This document shows, piece by piece, positions 3,151 to 62,737 of a DNA stretch of 64,000 bases. Position numbers and translations under genes: made by a program. Source of the stretch: a virus (lineage: Duplodnaviria > Caudoviricetes); IMG/VR virus record IMGVR_UViG_3300033073_001153, positions 160,001 to 224,000 of that record. One strand, written 5' to 3'. How positions within the stretch are numbered: the first letter of the stretch is position 1; each line of letters starts with the position of its first letter. The notes under the pieces are model-generated. The model was given only the letters and a program-made list of their open reading frames with translations, was not told the origin of the DNA and searched no databases.

Positions 3151-4395
3151 TTATTCCATAGTAATCGTTGTTCCAAATGGAGCAATTCTATTGTTTGATT
3201 TATAACCAACAAAAATTACATGATCACAATATTCTGGATCTCCCCAACCTCCAGATGGGTACATATCAGTAAACATTACAAATACTTTCGGACTGATATC
3301 ATATTTTTTCATATGATCCCAATTTGCTTCAAACAATGTTCCACCTCCACCTGCTGGAACATATTCAGTAATATCAGTTCCTTCATCACTTCTAAAAATT
3401 TGTTCATTGTGAACTTCTGCATCAAATGACCAAATACGAATATTATAATCATCGTATTGTTCCATGATACCTTTGATTTCACTAAGAAATACATTCAAAG
3501 TTTTTTCATCAATACTTCCCGAAGTATCAATAGCCACACAAATATCTAATGCTTCGTCTCGACGCATACCGGGCAATACAACACCATTTTGCATTCCTTT
3601 TTTATTTGGAGTATAAAATGTATAATCGTATTTGATTTGTGACTGAATATCCATCTTCAACAACTCTTTCCAAGAAAGAGTAGGGGCAGTTAAATCTTTA
3701 ATCAAACGATCAACTCCCTTTGGGACATTACCAGCACTGTTAGCAGAAGATAATAGACTTTCTTTAATTTCATTTCTAATCTGCTGTTTCTCTGATTCAG
3801 AAAGCTTTTTACCTTTCTTTTCTAAATCATCAAGATGTTCATCCAACAACATATCAGCCAAACTATCTACATCAATCTTGTCGGCATTTTTCAAGAGATC
3901 ATCGTAAATTTCTTCAGCACACTTTCCTTTGTACTTTTCTTCAAAAAGAGTATCATTAATTCGTGATCCTATATTAGATTCAATAAGAATGGCATTCACT
4001 GCATAATCACAAGCAATGTTCCAAAGAGTGTGATGACGACACTTTTTACTAAATGTTCCGTCTTCATTAATTTCCGTAACACTATCTGGAAACTCTTTCC
4101 TGATATGATGTTCGAATACATTGTGTAGCACTTCGTGTCCAAAAAGAAATTCAGTTTCTTTGACACTGAGACTACTAATGAATTCTAAATTATAAAAGAA
4201 ATTTCTTCCATCAGTAGCAGCAGTATTCATATTATCATCTCGAACAATAGTGAGATGAGTAGCCATACTACCAAAAAAAGGTTGCTTCAATAGCAAGCCA
4301 ATTCTTGCTGCTCTAAGCTTATCTTCAATCACTGCTTGTGATGGAAGTGGTTTATTTTCGTCTTTATCTAAATCAGTTTTCTTTTTGCGTGCCAT
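3151..4395 (-). CDS. metallopeptidase-like + vWA domain protein (DUF2201 type), MoxR partner; start probably MARKKK at 4395
   Basis: TAATDG, HEVLH (HExxH), WNIACDYAVN; MIDAS DTSGS, GGGT, FTD. Confidence 0.85.
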   Translation of the reverse strand: MARKKKTDLDKDENKPLPSQAVIEDKLRAARIGLLLKQPFFGSMATHLTIVRDDNMNTAATDGRNFFYNLEFISSLSVKETEFLFGHEVLHNVFEHHIRKEFPDSVTEINEDGTFSKKCRHHTLWNIACDYAVNAILIESNIGSRINDTLFEEKYKGKCAEEIYDDLLKNADKIDVDSLADMLLDEHLDDLEKKGKKLSESEKQQIRNEIKESLLSSANSAGNVPKGVDRLIKDLTAPTLSWKELLKMDIQSQIKYDYTFYTPNKKGMQNGVVLPGMRRDEALDICVAIDTSGSIDEKTLNVFLSEIKGIMEQYDDYNIRIWSFDAEVHNEQIFRSDEGTDITEYVPAGGGGTLFEANWDHMKKYDISPKVFVMFTDMYPSGGWGDPEYCDHVIFVGYKSNNRIAPFGTTITME

Positions 4396-4600
4396 CTGAA
4401 GGTAATTCGTCATGATCACAAGAATCTACAGCATTTTCTTGTTGTTCGCAAGAAATTTCTCGTTTTTTATTTTTGAAAGTTCTATTGTTTTCGCAATAAC
4501 CACAGTTCCCATGATTACGACAACTGCGATCAAATCTCTTAGAGCCGAAATAATTTTTTCGGTATTCTTTTCCGGAATTGATCGCCTTGTCCAAACTCAT
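4373..4600 (-). CDS. small Cys/His protein, possibly Zn-binding
   Basis: SCRNHGNCGYC motif; tightly packed in the operon. Confidence 0.7.
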   Translation of the reverse strand: MSLDKAINSGKEYRKNYFGSKRFDRSCRNHGNCGYCENNRTFKNKKREISCEQQENAVDSCDHDELPSDGTQKEN

Positions 4601-58467: not shown

Positions 58468-59025
58468 ATGGAAAAAAAGTTTATTAAACTTATTGAGACA
58501 ACAATTACCCGTGTTACACGTGGTGGGTTTCTTTTAGGTGATTATGTAGAATTTGTTAAGAATTATACATCAAAAAAAGAATACAAAGATCTCAATGATT
58601 CCGTAAAAGAAGCTATCGACGATCTTGCTAAATCAAAATTAAACGTAAGAGTTGTTGGAATTAATGATAAACAACCTCTAAGATATCCCGGAAATGCCGA
58701 TTTAATGACCGGAGATGTTGTATTAGCTCTTGCTGAAGATCAAGGAGGCGGAAGAACTCATGGAAATGTATTTGTTCCCTCTTGTTTGTGTAAAGTAGTC
58801 GATCATTATCCAAATCAAGCTCCACTTCCAGATGAATGGAATTATGATAACAAAGAAATTCATAAACCAGTAGAAGTTAAAGCCGTAGATGGTGGTTCTT
58901 CTGGTATTACTTACGAATTACCAAAAACTGATACAAAAATTAAACCGTCTTCTTCAAAGAAAAAGACGGTTAATGAAGAATCTTATACTTCTGATTACTT
59001 ATCAGGTATGGAATATCTTCGATAA
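58468..59025 (+). CDS. late hypothetical protein (start revised to ATG 58468)
   Basis: TAAATA 5 nt upstream; the track's extension overlaps gp25. Confidence 0.7.
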   Translation: MEKKFIKLIETTITRVTRGGFLLGDYVEFVKNYTSKKEYKDLNDSVKEAIDDLAKSKLNVRVVGINDKQPLRYPGNADLMTGDVVLALAEDQGGGRTHGNVFVPSCLCKVVDHYPNQAPLPDEWNYDNKEIHKPVEVKAVDGGSSGITYELPKTDTKIKPSSSKKKTVNEESYTSDYLSGMEYLR

Positions 59026-59742
59026 AGTAACCATACACACAAAACTATTGATTTCTACATCCATAACGAACGAATGACGATCCATGTGATGTCCAATAGT
59101 CATAATTGCTTCTTTTTTCTTTAAAGAATCAATGTTTTTAGTGTAAATTAAGTTTAAAAGATTCTTCAAAAGATTGTGATAATCAGCTTGGAATACGTTT
59201 TCATGCTTAATTACAAATTCACGAAAATCTAAATCATCACTTTTTTGAATTTTTTCTAGCAATTCTTCGATAAATTCGTTAGGAAGTGACGTATCTCTAA
59301 TATTAAGTGTTCCAGATATGCTATATTTTTGTAATTCATTCAGAATTTTTCTAAAATCTGGAAAATTATTCCTAATTAATGTCTGAAATAAATAAACTTG
59401 CTCTTTTGGAATCTTAATTTTTTCTTTTGTTAAGATTTTAGCACAATGTTTAGCTACATCATTAATGTTATGCTCTAAATTAACAGTTTGGCATCTGCTT
59501 TGAATAGCATCAATGATTCTATGTTTATAATTTGCTGTTAAAATAAACCTAGTATTATGAGCATATTCTTCAAGGGTATTTCTGAGTGCTCTCATTCCAT
59601 CAGATGAAAATCCGTCACAATTCGAAGTAAGAACTTGTTTATTCCCCACAAAAAAATTGTGGGTTTCATCAACACTAAGGTCGTATACGTGGGACTTTGC
59701 TTCTAGTTTAGTAATTTTTTTAATTTTTAAAGTATTTATCAT
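59002..59742 (-). CDS. gp44: clamp loader gp44/RFC C-terminal half preceded by a 41-aa split intein C-fragment
   Basis: MINTLKIKKI...VYDLSVDETHNFF...LTSN/CDG; then ALRNTLEE, RFILTANY, IQSRC, PDFRK. Confidence 0.9.
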   Translation of the reverse strand: MINTLKIKKITKLEAKSHVYDLSVDETHNFFVGNKQVLTSNCDGFSSDGMRALRNTLEEYAHNTRFILTANYKHRIIDAIQSRCQTVNLEHNINDVAKHCAKILTKEKIKIPKEQVYLFQTLIRNNFPDFRKILNELQKYSISGTLNIRDTSLPNEFIEELLEKIQKSDDLDFREFVIKHENVFQADYHNLLKNLLNLIYTKNIDSLKKKEAIMTIGHHMDRHSFVMDVEINSFVCMVTLSKIFHT

Positions 59743-61087
59743 GATAAATTTTTTTAATAGTAGCATCCTTGATCATTTTATTAAACTGTTCAATATTATC
59801 CTCATCTTTTAAAATTTTGTCAACATCAATATAATCTAAAATATTAGTCTCATTTATCCAAATGAATTTTATTCCCGTTTCTTTACAATAGTTTTGTAAA
59901 CACATCATCTTGTCAATTTCAATATTATATCGATTTCTGGGCTTTAATTCATACATCGTATTAGTACTTTCATCAAAAAAATCACTCACATATGTTTTGT
60001 TTTCTCCTTTAACTCGGATTGTTTCGTATACCATATGTCTATTTGAATAATAAAAACAAGCTTCCCAAGAACTTCTGAATCTTATAATAGTTCCATCTTC
60101 AAACTTTATTTTAGAGTCCCAATGAGTCCATGTATTTGTAATAGGCGGTGTAAATCTTCCTTCTTCTATAGTTTTTTTCATACTAATAGAAGACTTTTTA
60201 CTACATTCCATTTTATGCTTCTTTCCTTCTTCGGTTTTATAAAAATCTAACATCTTTTTAGATTTTTCTTGCCTTCTTTGAATACCTTTTTCACTTTGAT
60301 TAAATTTTTTCCCAACTTCGGATAATTTTTTTCTATGTTCTGGAGTTCTAAATGCCGAACGATCTGTAAGGTGTATCCATACACGTTGTTTTATCTCTTC
60401 TAATGTATATTTTTTAAAGCCAACCCATCCTTTATATGAAGATGTATATGAAAATTCTTCTTCCGTTAACAATTTTCCAGAATATGCACTATAATGCGGT
60501 TCTTGTAGCAAGAACATAAATCTATTCAAAGAAATTCTAGACATTTTTGCTTTAAAAGCTCCTACCCATATTCCATTAGATTTATATACTTTATTAGTTA
60601 AAGGACACCAAAATTTCTCATTTTGGCTTTTATATTGATTCAAAAGATTTTGTATTTCTTCTTCAGAAAAATCTCTAGGAACAATACGTATAGTAGGCTT
60701 ATTTATTTTTTTAAATAAGCGTAATTGTTTATTTCTTTGTGAAATAATTTCTTTATTTTTTTCTCTATACTCTTTATTTTTCTTAGAAAGAATTTCTTTA
60801 TTTTTACGATAATATTCTCGATTTTTTTCAAGAATTTCTTCTTTATGGGTTTCGCGATATTCTCTTGATCTTATTTTATTTTTTTCTAAATTTTTTCTAC
60901 GATAAATTCTAGCTCTCTCTCTATGAGATTCTATATTCTTCTGTCTTAATTCTTTAGATTGTTGCTTTATCTTTTCTTTATTTTTCTGATAATACTCACG
61001 TCTATATTGAGCACAGTGTTCTTTATTTTCTAATCTAAATTTTTTAGATCTTTCGTTTTTGGATAATTTTTTGGGTTCTTCTTCCAT
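59720..61087 (-). CDS. putative homing endonuclease: basic helical repeats + NUMOD3-like + TnsA-like PD-(D/E)XK domain
   Basis: YREKNKE-type repeats, HRKKLSE, FRSSWE...YE...YVSDF...YELKP. Confidence 0.75.
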   Translation of the reverse strand: MEEEPKKLSKNERSKKFRLENKEHCAQYRREYYQKNKEKIKQQSKELRQKNIESHRERARIYRRKNLEKNKIRSREYRETHKEEILEKNREYYRKNKEILSKKNKEYREKNKEIISQRNKQLRLFKKINKPTIRIVPRDFSEEEIQNLLNQYKSQNEKFWCPLTNKVYKSNGIWVGAFKAKMSRISLNRFMFLLQEPHYSAYSGKLLTEEEFSYTSSYKGWVGFKKYTLEEIKQRVWIHLTDRSAFRTPEHRKKLSEVGKKFNQSEKGIQRRQEKSKKMLDFYKTEEGKKHKMECSKKSSISMKKTIEEGRFTPPITNTWTHWDSKIKFEDGTIIRFRSSWEACFYYSNRHMVYETIRVKGENKTYVSDFFDESTNTMYELKPRNRYNIEIDKMMCLQNYCKETGIKFIWINETNILDYIDVDKILKDEDNIEQFNKMIKDATIKKIYHDKYFKN

Positions 61088-61121
61088 ACCCTATTATTTA
61101 GTGTAATGTATGAAGTCATAC
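61081..61121 (-). promoter_or_regulatory. late promoter inside a start-sequestering hairpin
   Basis: TAAATA at 61095-61100; CTTCATAC (61115-61108) can pair with GTATGGAAG over the AUG. Confidence 0.55.
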
Positions 61122-61133
61122 CATCAACCTTGA

Positions 61134-61766
61134 TCAATTTATGGTAATTATTTCATAAATTCCTTCATTCATGATGTCTATTAACTTTTTTCTAATTGGT
61201 AAATTAGATATTTTATCCTTTACATACCATTTGTGATCAGAAGTACAACACACAATTTCTCCATTTTCAAATTCAATCTCATACACTTCTTGAGACCCTT
61301 TATCTATCTTATAGAAAGGTCTCCATTCGATTCTATTTTTAGAAAAATTAAATGATTTCACCAAATCATTACGATCATCAACATTTTTGATCTCTACTTG
61401 CTGTTCTGATCCATTTCTGAGAATTGTTATAAGAGTATCTTCATGCAAGCATTCGTCTAATATGACGGACTTAATACCGCCATCCATAGATTTGGTTTGG
61501 GAGAATCCAACAATCTTATGCCGAACGGTATCAATTCCATTTTCATCAGAAGCATTGATATATAAGTAATCACAACCTAGAATATCATTAACGATAATCT
61601 TTGCTATGCTACTTTTTCCGATTCCCGGAGTTCCCGTAAATAATATATGAGGAATATCCTTTTTTTGTTTAAAAGATTCCAACAAATCTCTTATTTCATC
61701 CGAAATACAAAGATCTTCAATCTTTTTTGGACGATATTTTTCACACCACAAACTAGAAAAGTCCAT
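61134..61766 (-). CDS. gp44: clamp loader gp44/RFC N-terminal half fused to a 105-aa split intein N-fragment
   Basis: WCEKYRP, GTPGIGKS, NASDE, VILDE/CLHEDT. Confidence 0.92.
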   Translation of the reverse strand: MDFSSLWCEKYRPKKIEDLCISDEIRDLLESFKQKKDIPHILFTGTPGIGKSSIAKIIVNDILGCDYLYINASDENGIDTVRHKIVGFSQTKSMDGGIKSVILDECLHEDTLITILRNGSEQQVEIKNVDDRNDLVKSFNFSKNRIEWRPFYKIDKGSQEVYEIEFENGEIVCCTSDHKWYVKDKISNLPIRKKLIDIMNEGIYEIITIN

Positions 61767-61771
61767 ATATT

Positions 61772-62218
61772 TTATCGTCCAGATGAACCGAATCCTTTAT
61801 CTCCACGTGAAGTGATGTCTTTGCTTTCTACCCAACAAGTTTCTGGTTCAAGAAGTTTATAAACTACAAGTTGTGAAATTCTATCACCTTTTTTAACATG
61901 ATAATCTGTTTGGGTGTTGTTTATTAAAGAAATCCCCAATTTTCCACGATAAGAATTATCAATAACTCCAAAAAAACTCGTAATACCATGTTTGAAGAAC
62001 ATTCCTGATCTAGATTCTACACGAATCCAATAACCCGGAGTAATAAATCCAATATCTAAGCCAATAGGCACATTTGCTGTACCATTTGCGGGGATTAAAG
62101 CATCTTCTACCGCATAAACATCATATCCAGTATCTCCAGTTAATAATTCTTTGTTATTTCTTTCTGGAAGACGAGCATCTTCGTGAGTTTTTACAAAACA
62201 AATTTTAATATTTTCCAT
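61772..62218 (-). CDS. dut: trimeric dUTPase
   Basis: TGYDV, SRSG, GVIDNSYRG, RISQL, RGDKGFGSSG. Confidence 0.95.
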   Translation of the reverse strand: MENIKICFVKTHEDARLPERNNKELLTGDTGYDVYAVEDALIPANGTANVPIGLDIGFITPGYWIRVESRSGMFFKHGITSFFGVIDNSYRGKLGISLINNTQTDYHVKKGDRISQLVVYKLLEPETCWVESKDITSRGDKGFGSSGR

Positions 62219-62224
62219 TTTTCT

Positions 62225-62270
62225 AGTATAATGATTTTTTAGTTGAACACAAGATAAAAATATCTAAATA
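62225..62270. promoter_or_regulatory. divergent promoters: sigma70-like (minus, dut-gp44 operon) and late TAAATA (plus)
   Basis: TTGTGT-N16-TATACT 6 nt before ATG 62218; TAAATA at 62265-62270, 5 nt before ATG 62276. Confidence 0.55.
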
Positions 62271-62275
62271 TAGAT

Positions 62276-62737
62276 ATGTCCGACGATTCAGAACTAGATG
62301 ATACGGTAAATTCTCTTTTAAATCAACTAAAAACTGTGCCAACTGTTGCTAAAAAAGCAAAAGAAGCTTCTAACGACAACATTTCACGAGAAAGTTTGGA
62401 AAAATTTGTCGTACAATATGCTTCTAGGTTAGTAGAAAACGCTACGGAATCTGTAGAATACATTAAAGATAATGTTCAAGCTGCTCCTACCGCTGAAGAT
62501 GTGGTTTCTCTTTCTGAACTCATAAAATCCACAGCAGGAGCTATCGAAATCTTAAATAAGATCGTAATAAACAAAGAAAAACTCGAAAATTCTGTCAAGA
62601 TTAAAGAAATGGATATAAGCAGTAAGCGTGAAGAATTAGAAGTAAAAACTAATGTATTTCTTGCTTCAAGAGAAGATGTATTAAAACAACTTATCAATAA
62701 AACAAAAGTAATAGAAGCTACTACTGAAGAACTTTAA
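62276..62737 (+). CDS. late helical protein (terminase-small-subunit-like, uncertain)
   Basis: helical core, then NVFLASREDVLKQL, reminiscent of the T4 gp16 C-terminal segment. Confidence 0.45.
   Translation: MSDDSELDDTVNSLLNQLKTVPTVAKKAKEASNDNISRESLEKFVVQYASRLVENATESVEYIKDNVQAAPTAEDVVSLSELIKSTAGAIEILNKIVINKEKLENSVKIKEMDISSKREELEVKTNVFLASREDVLKQLINKTKVIEATTEEL

Follow-up and report, generated by a model that had tools for sequence, protein, structure and literature searches.

How a phage could obtain an intact clamp loader from a gene that is broken inside its ATP-hydrolysis motif is the question raised by the gp44 locus described here. The locus lies in a stretch of 64,000 nucleotides (nt), hereafter the window, that spans positions 160001-224000 of the IMG/VR virus record IMGVR_UViG_3300033073_001153; coordinates below are in window numbering. 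The whole record is 242,607 bp long and is rated complete by CheckV. The window has a G+C content of about 30% and carries mostly tail, baseplate and fibre genes of a T4-like myovirus, with the gp44 locus on the minus strand directly after a dUTPase gene. Two genes at the locus each encode one part of the clamp loader joined to one part of an intein, and a third gene, for an endonuclease, separates them. Our results support a naturally split class-1 intein in a gp44/RFC-type clamp loader, placed at Walker B (DE/C; here and below a slash marks an intein boundary or insertion point). In our reading, gp44 is very probably rebuilt by class-1 split-intein trans-splicing (VILDE-CDGF), with the cassette kept and spread by the endonuclease.

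Two parts of gp44 and two parts of an intein

The N gene (61766..61134, minus strand, as for every feature of the locus) encodes 210 amino acids (aa), made up of a 105-aa N-extein (61452..61766) and a 105-aa N-terminal intein half, IntN (61137..61451). Its precursor ends at a TGA stop read directly at 61134..61136. The C gene (59742..59002) encodes a 246-aa precursor in which a 41-aa C-terminal intein half, IntC (59620..59742), precedes a 205-aa C-extein that starts at Cys+1 (CDGF...; 59005..59619). An earlier note on this DNA had given the span of the locus, the 105-aa N-extein up to VILDE, the lengths of both intein halves, the CDGF start with its 205 aa and a joined length of 310 aa, and all of these match the sequence.

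The exteins were readily recognised as a clamp loader. The N-extein corresponds to gp44/RFC residues 1-105 and contains the P-loop GTPGIGKS and Walker B VILDE, and the C-extein contains sensor 1 (ILTAN), the SRC arginine finger (QSRCQ), the Gp44 lid and the collar. The clamp-loader profile PHROG_168 matched the N gene over profile positions 9-109 (E 1.7e-30) and the C gene over positions 98-308 (E 4.6e-34). In Pfam the C-extein matched Gp44_lid (E 5e-10) and DNA_pol3_delta2, and its matches in the PDB were RFC subunits; a profile of the N-half family matched archaeal RFC-S (8e-29) and T4 gp44 (1.4e-20). The AlphaFold2 (AF2) model of the N precursor had a mean confidence (pLDDT) of 82.9, and the N-extein of this model superposed on T4 gp44 (3u61_E) at 1.9 A over 99 residues. 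Joined, the exteins come to 310 aa, against 310-320 aa in uninterrupted relatives, and hold P-loop, Walker B, sensor 1, SRC arginine finger and lid domain. The break lies inside the ATP-hydrolysis motif, so neither half would be expected to be active alone. Matches to Rhizobium and Acidovorax phage proteins that appeared to span IntN were rejected, as these are ordinary 315-aa gp44 proteins and the extension of the alignment was spurious.

IntN starts with CLHEDT, the Cys1 codon being at 61451-61449, and carries block B as T70-x-x-H73 within CCTSDHKW. IntC (MINTLKIKKI...) has a basic head (MINTLKIKKITK), block F as VYDLSV..THNFF and block G as VLTSN, and it ends in Ser40-Asn41, followed by Cys+1. 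The net charge is -4 for IntN and +4 for the first 20 residues of IntC, confirming the acidic and basic character, as well as the Ser-Asn end, that had been noted earlier. Pfam Intein_splicing matched both halves, with positions 2-74 in IntN and 122-150 in IntC. The claim of a split intein inside gp44/RFC at Walker B is thus borne out by matches to both PHROG_168 and Intein_splicing in each of the two genes.

The position of the break was examined against a 145-aa contiguous mini-intein (P0111 / L105) that sits at the identical DE/C position in the gp44 of another phage and scores 46.1 bits with Intein_splicing, against a cut-off of 35.8. IntN is 53% identical to residues 1-89 of this mini-intein and IntC is 51% identical to residues 109-145. 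The 19-residue loop between them, the usual place of a nested endonuclease, is replaced by the tail of IntN and the first residues of IntC. The alignment thus places the break at the canonical endonuclease-insertion point, with the two halves complementing each other.

Conservation among homologues follows the same pattern. In 31 aligned N halves Cys1, Leu2, Glu4, Thr6 and the block B motif CTxxHKW are invariant, and all 31 stop 25-40 aa past block B. Block F, the terminal Asn and Cys+1 were kept in every C half read, and the position of the IntC start codon is conserved in all alleles. The residues assigned to class-1 splicing, namely Cys1, TxxH, the terminal Asn and Cys+1, are all present by alignment. 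In a search of PDB sequences IntN retrieved the Npu and Ssp DnaE and NrdJ-1 inteins at E ~1e-3 and gp41-1 at 0.4. The IntN model matched the Npu DnaE IntN (4qfq_A) with a Foldseek probability of 1.0; the root-mean-square deviation was high, as can be expected when a half-domain is modelled by itself.

An endonuclease gene between the halves

The N gene, the endonuclease open reading frame (ORF) and the C gene are consecutive on one strand and lie in three different frames, each with its own start. The stop of the N gene (61136-61134) and the ATG of the C gene (59742) are 1.39 kb apart. Between them lies a free-standing homing-endonuclease gene of 455 aa (59720..61087), the end of which overlaps the start of the C gene by 23 nt (59720..59742, by direct reading); comparable overlaps were seen in contigs L001, L087 and L090. 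Just past the stop of the C gene is a terminator-like hairpin of 13 pairs followed by a T run (58943..58971), the sole such site in 58800-62400. The endonuclease gene had not been discussed in the earlier note, and it is what drives the fractured arrangement.

By profile search the 455-aa protein matched phrog_15427, 'endonuclease' (E 7e-14). It matched no Pfam family at E<=0.1, Tn7_TnsA-like_N (PF08722) included; the homologue in L001 reached E 0.03 with PF08722, which is under the cut-off. Its 46 database relatives are all unnamed, and a PDB sequence search returned only coiled-coil noise. In 24 homologues the C-terminal 185 aa are conserved, with invariant FTP.ITN..THW, FRSSWEAC, DFxD and YExKP motifs. 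Within them E342, D369, E380 and K382, catalytic-type residues of a PD-(D/E)xK nuclease, are invariant, and neither an EDxHD nor a GIY-YIG motif was present in the family alignment. The AF2 model (pLDDT 90.6) found its best structural match in Tn7 TnsA (Foldseek probability 0.98, E 0.03), with a middling VIA Z of 7.8 over 134 aa; Vsr (5.3) and I-Bth0305I (4.9) scored lower. Judged by this model, the endonuclease is a TnsA-like PD-(D/E)xK fold with a catalytic E..D..ExK arrangement.

The N-terminal region is of a different kind. Residues ~15-125 (window 60713-61045) are strongly basic, with 47 K+R in 135 aa, and contain four YxxKN(K/L)E repeats, at residues 32, 62, 92 and 107. No family was matched by this repeat region. 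K/R-rich YxxKNKE repeats are common to the window and the proteins P0003 and P0012, whilst L001 and GenBank LR756500.1 have Cys-rich segments instead. This lineage-variable N-terminus is presumably a modular DNA-binding region. NUMOD3-like basic segments occur in the endonuclease, and its Atlas neighbours carry Tn7_TnsA-like_N and NUMOD3, which we take as a lead only.

No second copy of the 455-aa endonuclease was found in the genome. When the contexts of five homologues were looked up, four lay in fractured gp44 genes and the fifth, P0046 (L094:1-2141), in a fractured gene for the terminase large subunit. P0046 is the most distant member of the endonuclease family. The terminase is broken at its own Walker B (LLILDE/CLDGET...) by an intein with a 33-aa IntN and an IntC of ~110 aa (...VSHN/CAFI), an atypical split like that of AceL-TerL.

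Recurrence, allele forms and spread of the cassette

The same cassette order, N-extein with IntN, endonuclease gene, IntC with C-extein, was found in IMG/VR contigs L001-L005 and L008. It was found again in L087-L093, metagenome contigs from JGI, ENA, Logan and NCBI that were reached via endonuclease homologues. The cassette is also carried, unannotated, by a 462-kb 'uncultured phage' in GenBank (L096; LR756500.1, 206815-214363), where it reads VVILDE/CLQEDE..., then a 443-aa endonuclease with FRSSWELCF, then an IntC ending ...CTHN/CDGA.

A word-indexed search returned 59 clusters (90% identity) with IntN, nearly all of them AAA+IntN proteins of 205-230 aa. Allele classes were assigned by hidden Markov model coordinates in 151 clusters at 50% identity, these being the 150 best of a profile search over 1.8 billion representatives plus P0060, added by hand. 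About 50 clusters were split N halves, 28 had contiguous mini-inteins and 48 were without an intein; a further 6 had an extra N-terminal intein piece and 3 were in-frame IntN-endonuclease fusions. The metagenome search for gp44 alleles proposed earlier thus found split, contiguous and intein-less forms, and the window represents a large family rather than a one-off. When 185,579 species genomes were scanned with the two best motifs of the family, no relative, cellular or prophage, was found.

Contiguous mini-inteins at DE/C are exemplified by P0111, P0114 and P0115 (~450-460 aa), and the in-frame fusions of IntN to a PD-(D/E)xK endonuclease are P0134, P0146 and P0171. In P0141 (806 aa) the P-loop is interrupted by a large LAGLIDADG-type intein and Walker B by a mini-intein, both of them contiguous. 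Taken together, the contiguous, double-intein and fused forms of gp44 look like intermediates between contiguous and split.

Some gp44 genes are broken more than once or elsewhere. On an ENA scaffold (L097:4678-6689) gp44 is in three genes, cut by two different split inteins. The first piece (86 aa) ends at the P-loop (...GSAGVGK) and continues into a 34-aa IntN (CLGPDE...). The second (288 aa) has an IntC of ~130 aa (HHN/T), a 55-aa middle extein and the Walker-B IntN after LLDE/C, and the third (245 aa) reads IntC...LTHN/CDYL. The first of these inteins is atypically split, with a short N and a long C part, and has Thr at +1. Proteins of the three-piece type were also seen as P0060, P0075, P0090, P0103, P0120 and P0125; L097 has no endonuclease genes, and the P0060 contig has one per gap (382 and 459 aa). 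A second, unrelated gp44 fracture was found in L041:2270-4522, five residues downstream (VILDEADYLN/CLDENEF...EDHPL; ...VVVHN/CNSTQP). Both halves of that intein match Pfam Intein_splicing; its intervening 288-aa ORF had no Pfam match and a GIY-YIG identity was not confirmed. P0107 (178 aa, from a 988-nt ENA contig) joins a DegT/aminotransferase-like N-terminus to the rear half of IntN (NENRIEWKPF...HKWYV...) and may have arisen through chimeric assembly or be left over from recombination.

Selection and mobility were examined by comparing alleles. Against L087, the closest split allele to the window, rough dN/dS values (ratios of nonsynonymous to synonymous divergence) were 0.08 for IntN, 0.06 for IntC, 0.19 for the endonuclease and 0.13 and 0.29 for the exteins, by which inteins and exteins are under purifying selection. 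The intein was more conserved than the exteins in each comparison: 81% against 61% identity with L087, 60.5% against 37.7% with L001 and 55.5% against 35.1% with L008. This points to horizontal homing. Between L001 and L003, dS was 0.09-0.22 inside the cassette and 0.54-0.74 in the flanking exteins, indicating a recent exchange of the cassette.

The nearest relatives of the window, L006, L007 and L048, have an uninterrupted gene, with extein identities of 87-89% and 78-83%. Along the joined exteins, nucleotide identity to L006 (6001-6933) was 73-98% in every 45-nt window except one, falling to 42% only in the 45 nt directly after the junction. L006 reads ILEE-NDSASVEF at the insertion site, and most intein-less alleles read ILDE-ADSLS. 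The local divergence matches the expected target of a homing endonuclease and may be a co-conversion tract or reflect escape (cleavage-resistant) mutations. Four intein-less alleles (L018, L019, L036 and L037) read DE-CDG(I/L), showing that a clamp loader can function with Cys directly behind Walker B; they may represent sites naturally open to the cassette or traces of an intein that was lost precisely. Taken together, the distribution and the substitution patterns point to a selfish homing cassette.

Trans-splicing, its alternatives and known systems

We propose the following mechanism. The mobile cassette inside the Walker B codon string (VILDE/CDGF) would be a mini-intein split by a free-standing TnsA-like endonuclease gene. 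The three genes are probably one transcription unit, with its terminator past the C gene, and their translation would give the 210-aa N precursor and the 246-aa C precursor. The acidic IntN and the basic head of IntC would associate into a HINT fold, Cys1 would undergo an N-S acyl shift and the thioester would be handed to Cys+1. Cyclisation of IntC Asn41, with Ser rather than His as the penultimate residue, and an S-N shift would then release a 310-aa gp44 (...VILDE-CDGF...) with the predicted junction peptide SVILDECDGFSSDGMR. The endonuclease would cut intein-less gp44 alleles in co-infecting phages, and repair would copy IntN, endonuclease gene and IntC as one unit. No second gp44 was found in the 242,607-bp genome and DE-CDG alleles occur naturally, so the spliced product is both plausible and needed.

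Several observations weigh against this account. Each intein half taken alone scores under the Pfam gathering score of 35.8 bits (IntN 20.4, IntC 23.5). The penultimate His of block G, kept in L001, L008 and L096, is Ser in the window. No exact T4-type late promoter (TATAAATA) is present near 61088-61133, ahead of the endonuclease gene, and no significant hairpin was found there (fold z-score -0.97 against shuffles). The dS between the window and L087 is near saturation, which makes the dN/dS values rough, and the higher conservation of the intein could come partly from tight constraint rather than transfer. The Ser is common to three diverged alleles, those of the window, L087 and L090, and is thus a conserved variant and not a lesion; the IntC of Npu DnaE ends in Ser-Asn too. 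In having neither late promoter nor hairpin ahead of the endonuclease gene, the locus differs from most of those of Dassa et al. discussed below. Folding of the intergenic and overlap regions was no better than that of shuffles (z -0.97 and +0.55).

The alternative that survives best is compatible with trans-splicing itself. The earlier note had suggested that the intein gates phage replication, and splicing might indeed be conditional, responding to the redox state of Cys1 and Cys+1 or to the timing of endonuclease translation. Both nucleophiles are cysteines in the Walker B pocket, and the 23-nt overlap may couple translation of the C half to that of the endonuclease ORF. However, no observation calls for regulation, the closest relatives do without any interruption of the gene, and the evidence points instead to a selfish homing cassette. 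We therefore consider a gate improbable. A wider proposal would add the gate, acting on the supply of clamp loader and through it on replication, to an undescribed, widespread mobile lineage, formed by the gp44 Walker-B intein and its TnsA-like endonuclease, in which the path from contiguous to split survives (contiguous mini-intein, IntN-endonuclease fusion, split with free endonuclease, split without and three-piece); with all its parts taken jointly, it too is unlikely to hold.

Somewhat less probable still is a two-chain clamp loader, in which the halves join non-covalently without splicing and the intein pieces act as dimerisation domains. There is a precedent in the Aeh1 NrdA fragments, which are reported to be functional without splicing after mobE insertion (PMC3045599), and the replacement of the penultimate His by Ser would fit such a role. 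However, dozens of diverged alleles share Cys1, TxxH, the terminal Asn and Cys+1 without exception, none of which a docking-only role would need, and dN/dS is low. An unspliced intein at DE/C would, moreover, lie within the ATP site.

Trans-splicing of a genuinely split intein also presupposes that the locus is correctly assembled. In-frame IntN-endonuclease fusions and contiguous mini-inteins do exist elsewhere, as described above, and the locus could be imagined as a single contiguous intein containing an endonuclease domain, its reading frame either disrupted by sequencing errors or read through by frameshifting. Against this, the three genes have separate frames and starts, and more than 10 independent assemblies (JGI, ENA, Logan and GenBank) show identical stops and starts. 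This recurrence shows that the cassette is not a misassembly, a concern raised in the earlier note, and we regard an artefact as very improbable. Equally hard to credit is a decaying gene or one rejoined at the RNA level as an intron holding the endonuclease gene, familiar as such genes are from group I introns of T4-like phages: an Rfam scan of 58800-62000 matched no intron family (group I or II), the intein blocks flank the break exactly, and the exteins and inteins of this only gp44 in a genome estimated complete are under purifying selection.

The trans-splicing account was then set against known systems. As inteins preferentially occupy the ATPase motifs of replisome proteins, and about ten host genes with phage split inteins are already known, an intein of this kind would be only a mild surprise to a specialist. 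Dassa et al. 2009 (PMC2677866) described fractured genes in eight host enzyme types, with endonucleases that were GIY-YIG or Vsr-like (EDxHD) and, at 15 of 16 loci, a hairpin with a late-promoter element ahead of the endonuclease gene. The clamp loader is not among the eight, in agreement with its having been placed outside the classic hosts earlier, and later papers added PolB and TerL split inteins. In the literature searched, which did not extend to intein databases, we found no account of a clamp loader, gp44 or replication factor C that is interrupted by a split intein.

The locus resembles those of Dassa et al. (among them gp41-1, NrdJ-1, IMPDH-1 and NrdA-2) in having, on one strand, an N part with IntN, a free-standing endonuclease gene and an IntC with the C part. 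The break is likewise at the canonical endonuclease-insertion point, IntN is ~100 aa and IntC ~40 aa, the charges are opposite, and the origin is phage or metagenomic with endonuclease-free variants (L097, compare gp41-7). It differs in its clamp-loader host, in its TnsA-like E..D..ExK nuclease, which is neither GIY-YIG nor Vsr-like/EDxHD, and in lacking, in the window, a late-promoter hairpin upstream of the endonuclease gene. The restriction-endonuclease-like fold with E..D..ExK is shared with Tn7 TnsA and with viral TnsA-like/NUMOD3 nucleases. Unlike TnsA, the window protein has no transposition context and lies between intein halves as a presumed homing enzyme.

Two other inteins invite comparison. 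The halves of Npu and Ssp DnaE are also acidic (IntN) and basic (IntC), of ~100 aa and 36-41 aa, with Cys1 and Cys+1. They are encoded at distant chromosomal loci, however, with no endonuclease between them, and their similarity to the window halves is marginal (E ~1e-3). According to the earlier note, archaeal RFC carries contiguous inteins at this site. In the account of Novikova et al. 2016, however, it is cyanobacterial DnaX (PolIII gamma) whose contiguous intein is located 'immediately after Walker B', and archaeal RFC-S has four other sites, none overlapping the DnaX site. DnaX is an orthologous clamp-loader AAA+ ATPase, and its intein, too, has Cys1 and is of class 1, and is described as directly following Walker B; it is contiguous and cellular, whereas that of the window is split and phage-borne. 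Judged by the site description in the literature, the phage intein appears to be positionally equivalent to the DnaX intein. The best PDB match of the contiguous gp44 mini-intein was the Spl DnaX mini-intein (7cfv; E 1.3e-8), which the window's own halves matched weakly (IntC E 1.2).

The locus is thus a case of the known fractured-gene mechanism in which both the host protein and the endonuclease partner are new, and it is one member of a large family missed by current annotation. If splicing occurs as we infer, the clamp loader is a further member of the small set of proteins that natural trans-splicing restores. The dozens of diverged, co-evolved IntN/IntC pairs, with His-Asn and Ser-Asn ends, are candidates for orthogonal protein ligation, and the second, atypically split intein in the same protein of some phages is a further one. 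The contiguous, fused, split and endonuclease-free forms at one site offer an unusually complete series for testing the model of Dassa et al. Such genes now bear the labels 'hypothetical', 'Cdc6-like ATPase' or 'DNA polymerase III gamma/tau', and because the halves are mislabelled, phage genomes appear to be without an intact clamp loader.

Other elements of similar kinds occur in this phage. Three more Intein_splicing matches were found in the same genome outside the window, at C1:52356-52730 (in a 1046-aa frame), C1:71371-72576 (704-aa) and C1:321-698 (425-aa), indicating that the phage carries several inteins. Within the window, a 422-aa ORF at 3151-4419 (minus strand) matched phrog_1314, 'HNH endonuclease' (E 6.5e-93), and is likely another free-standing homing endonuclease.

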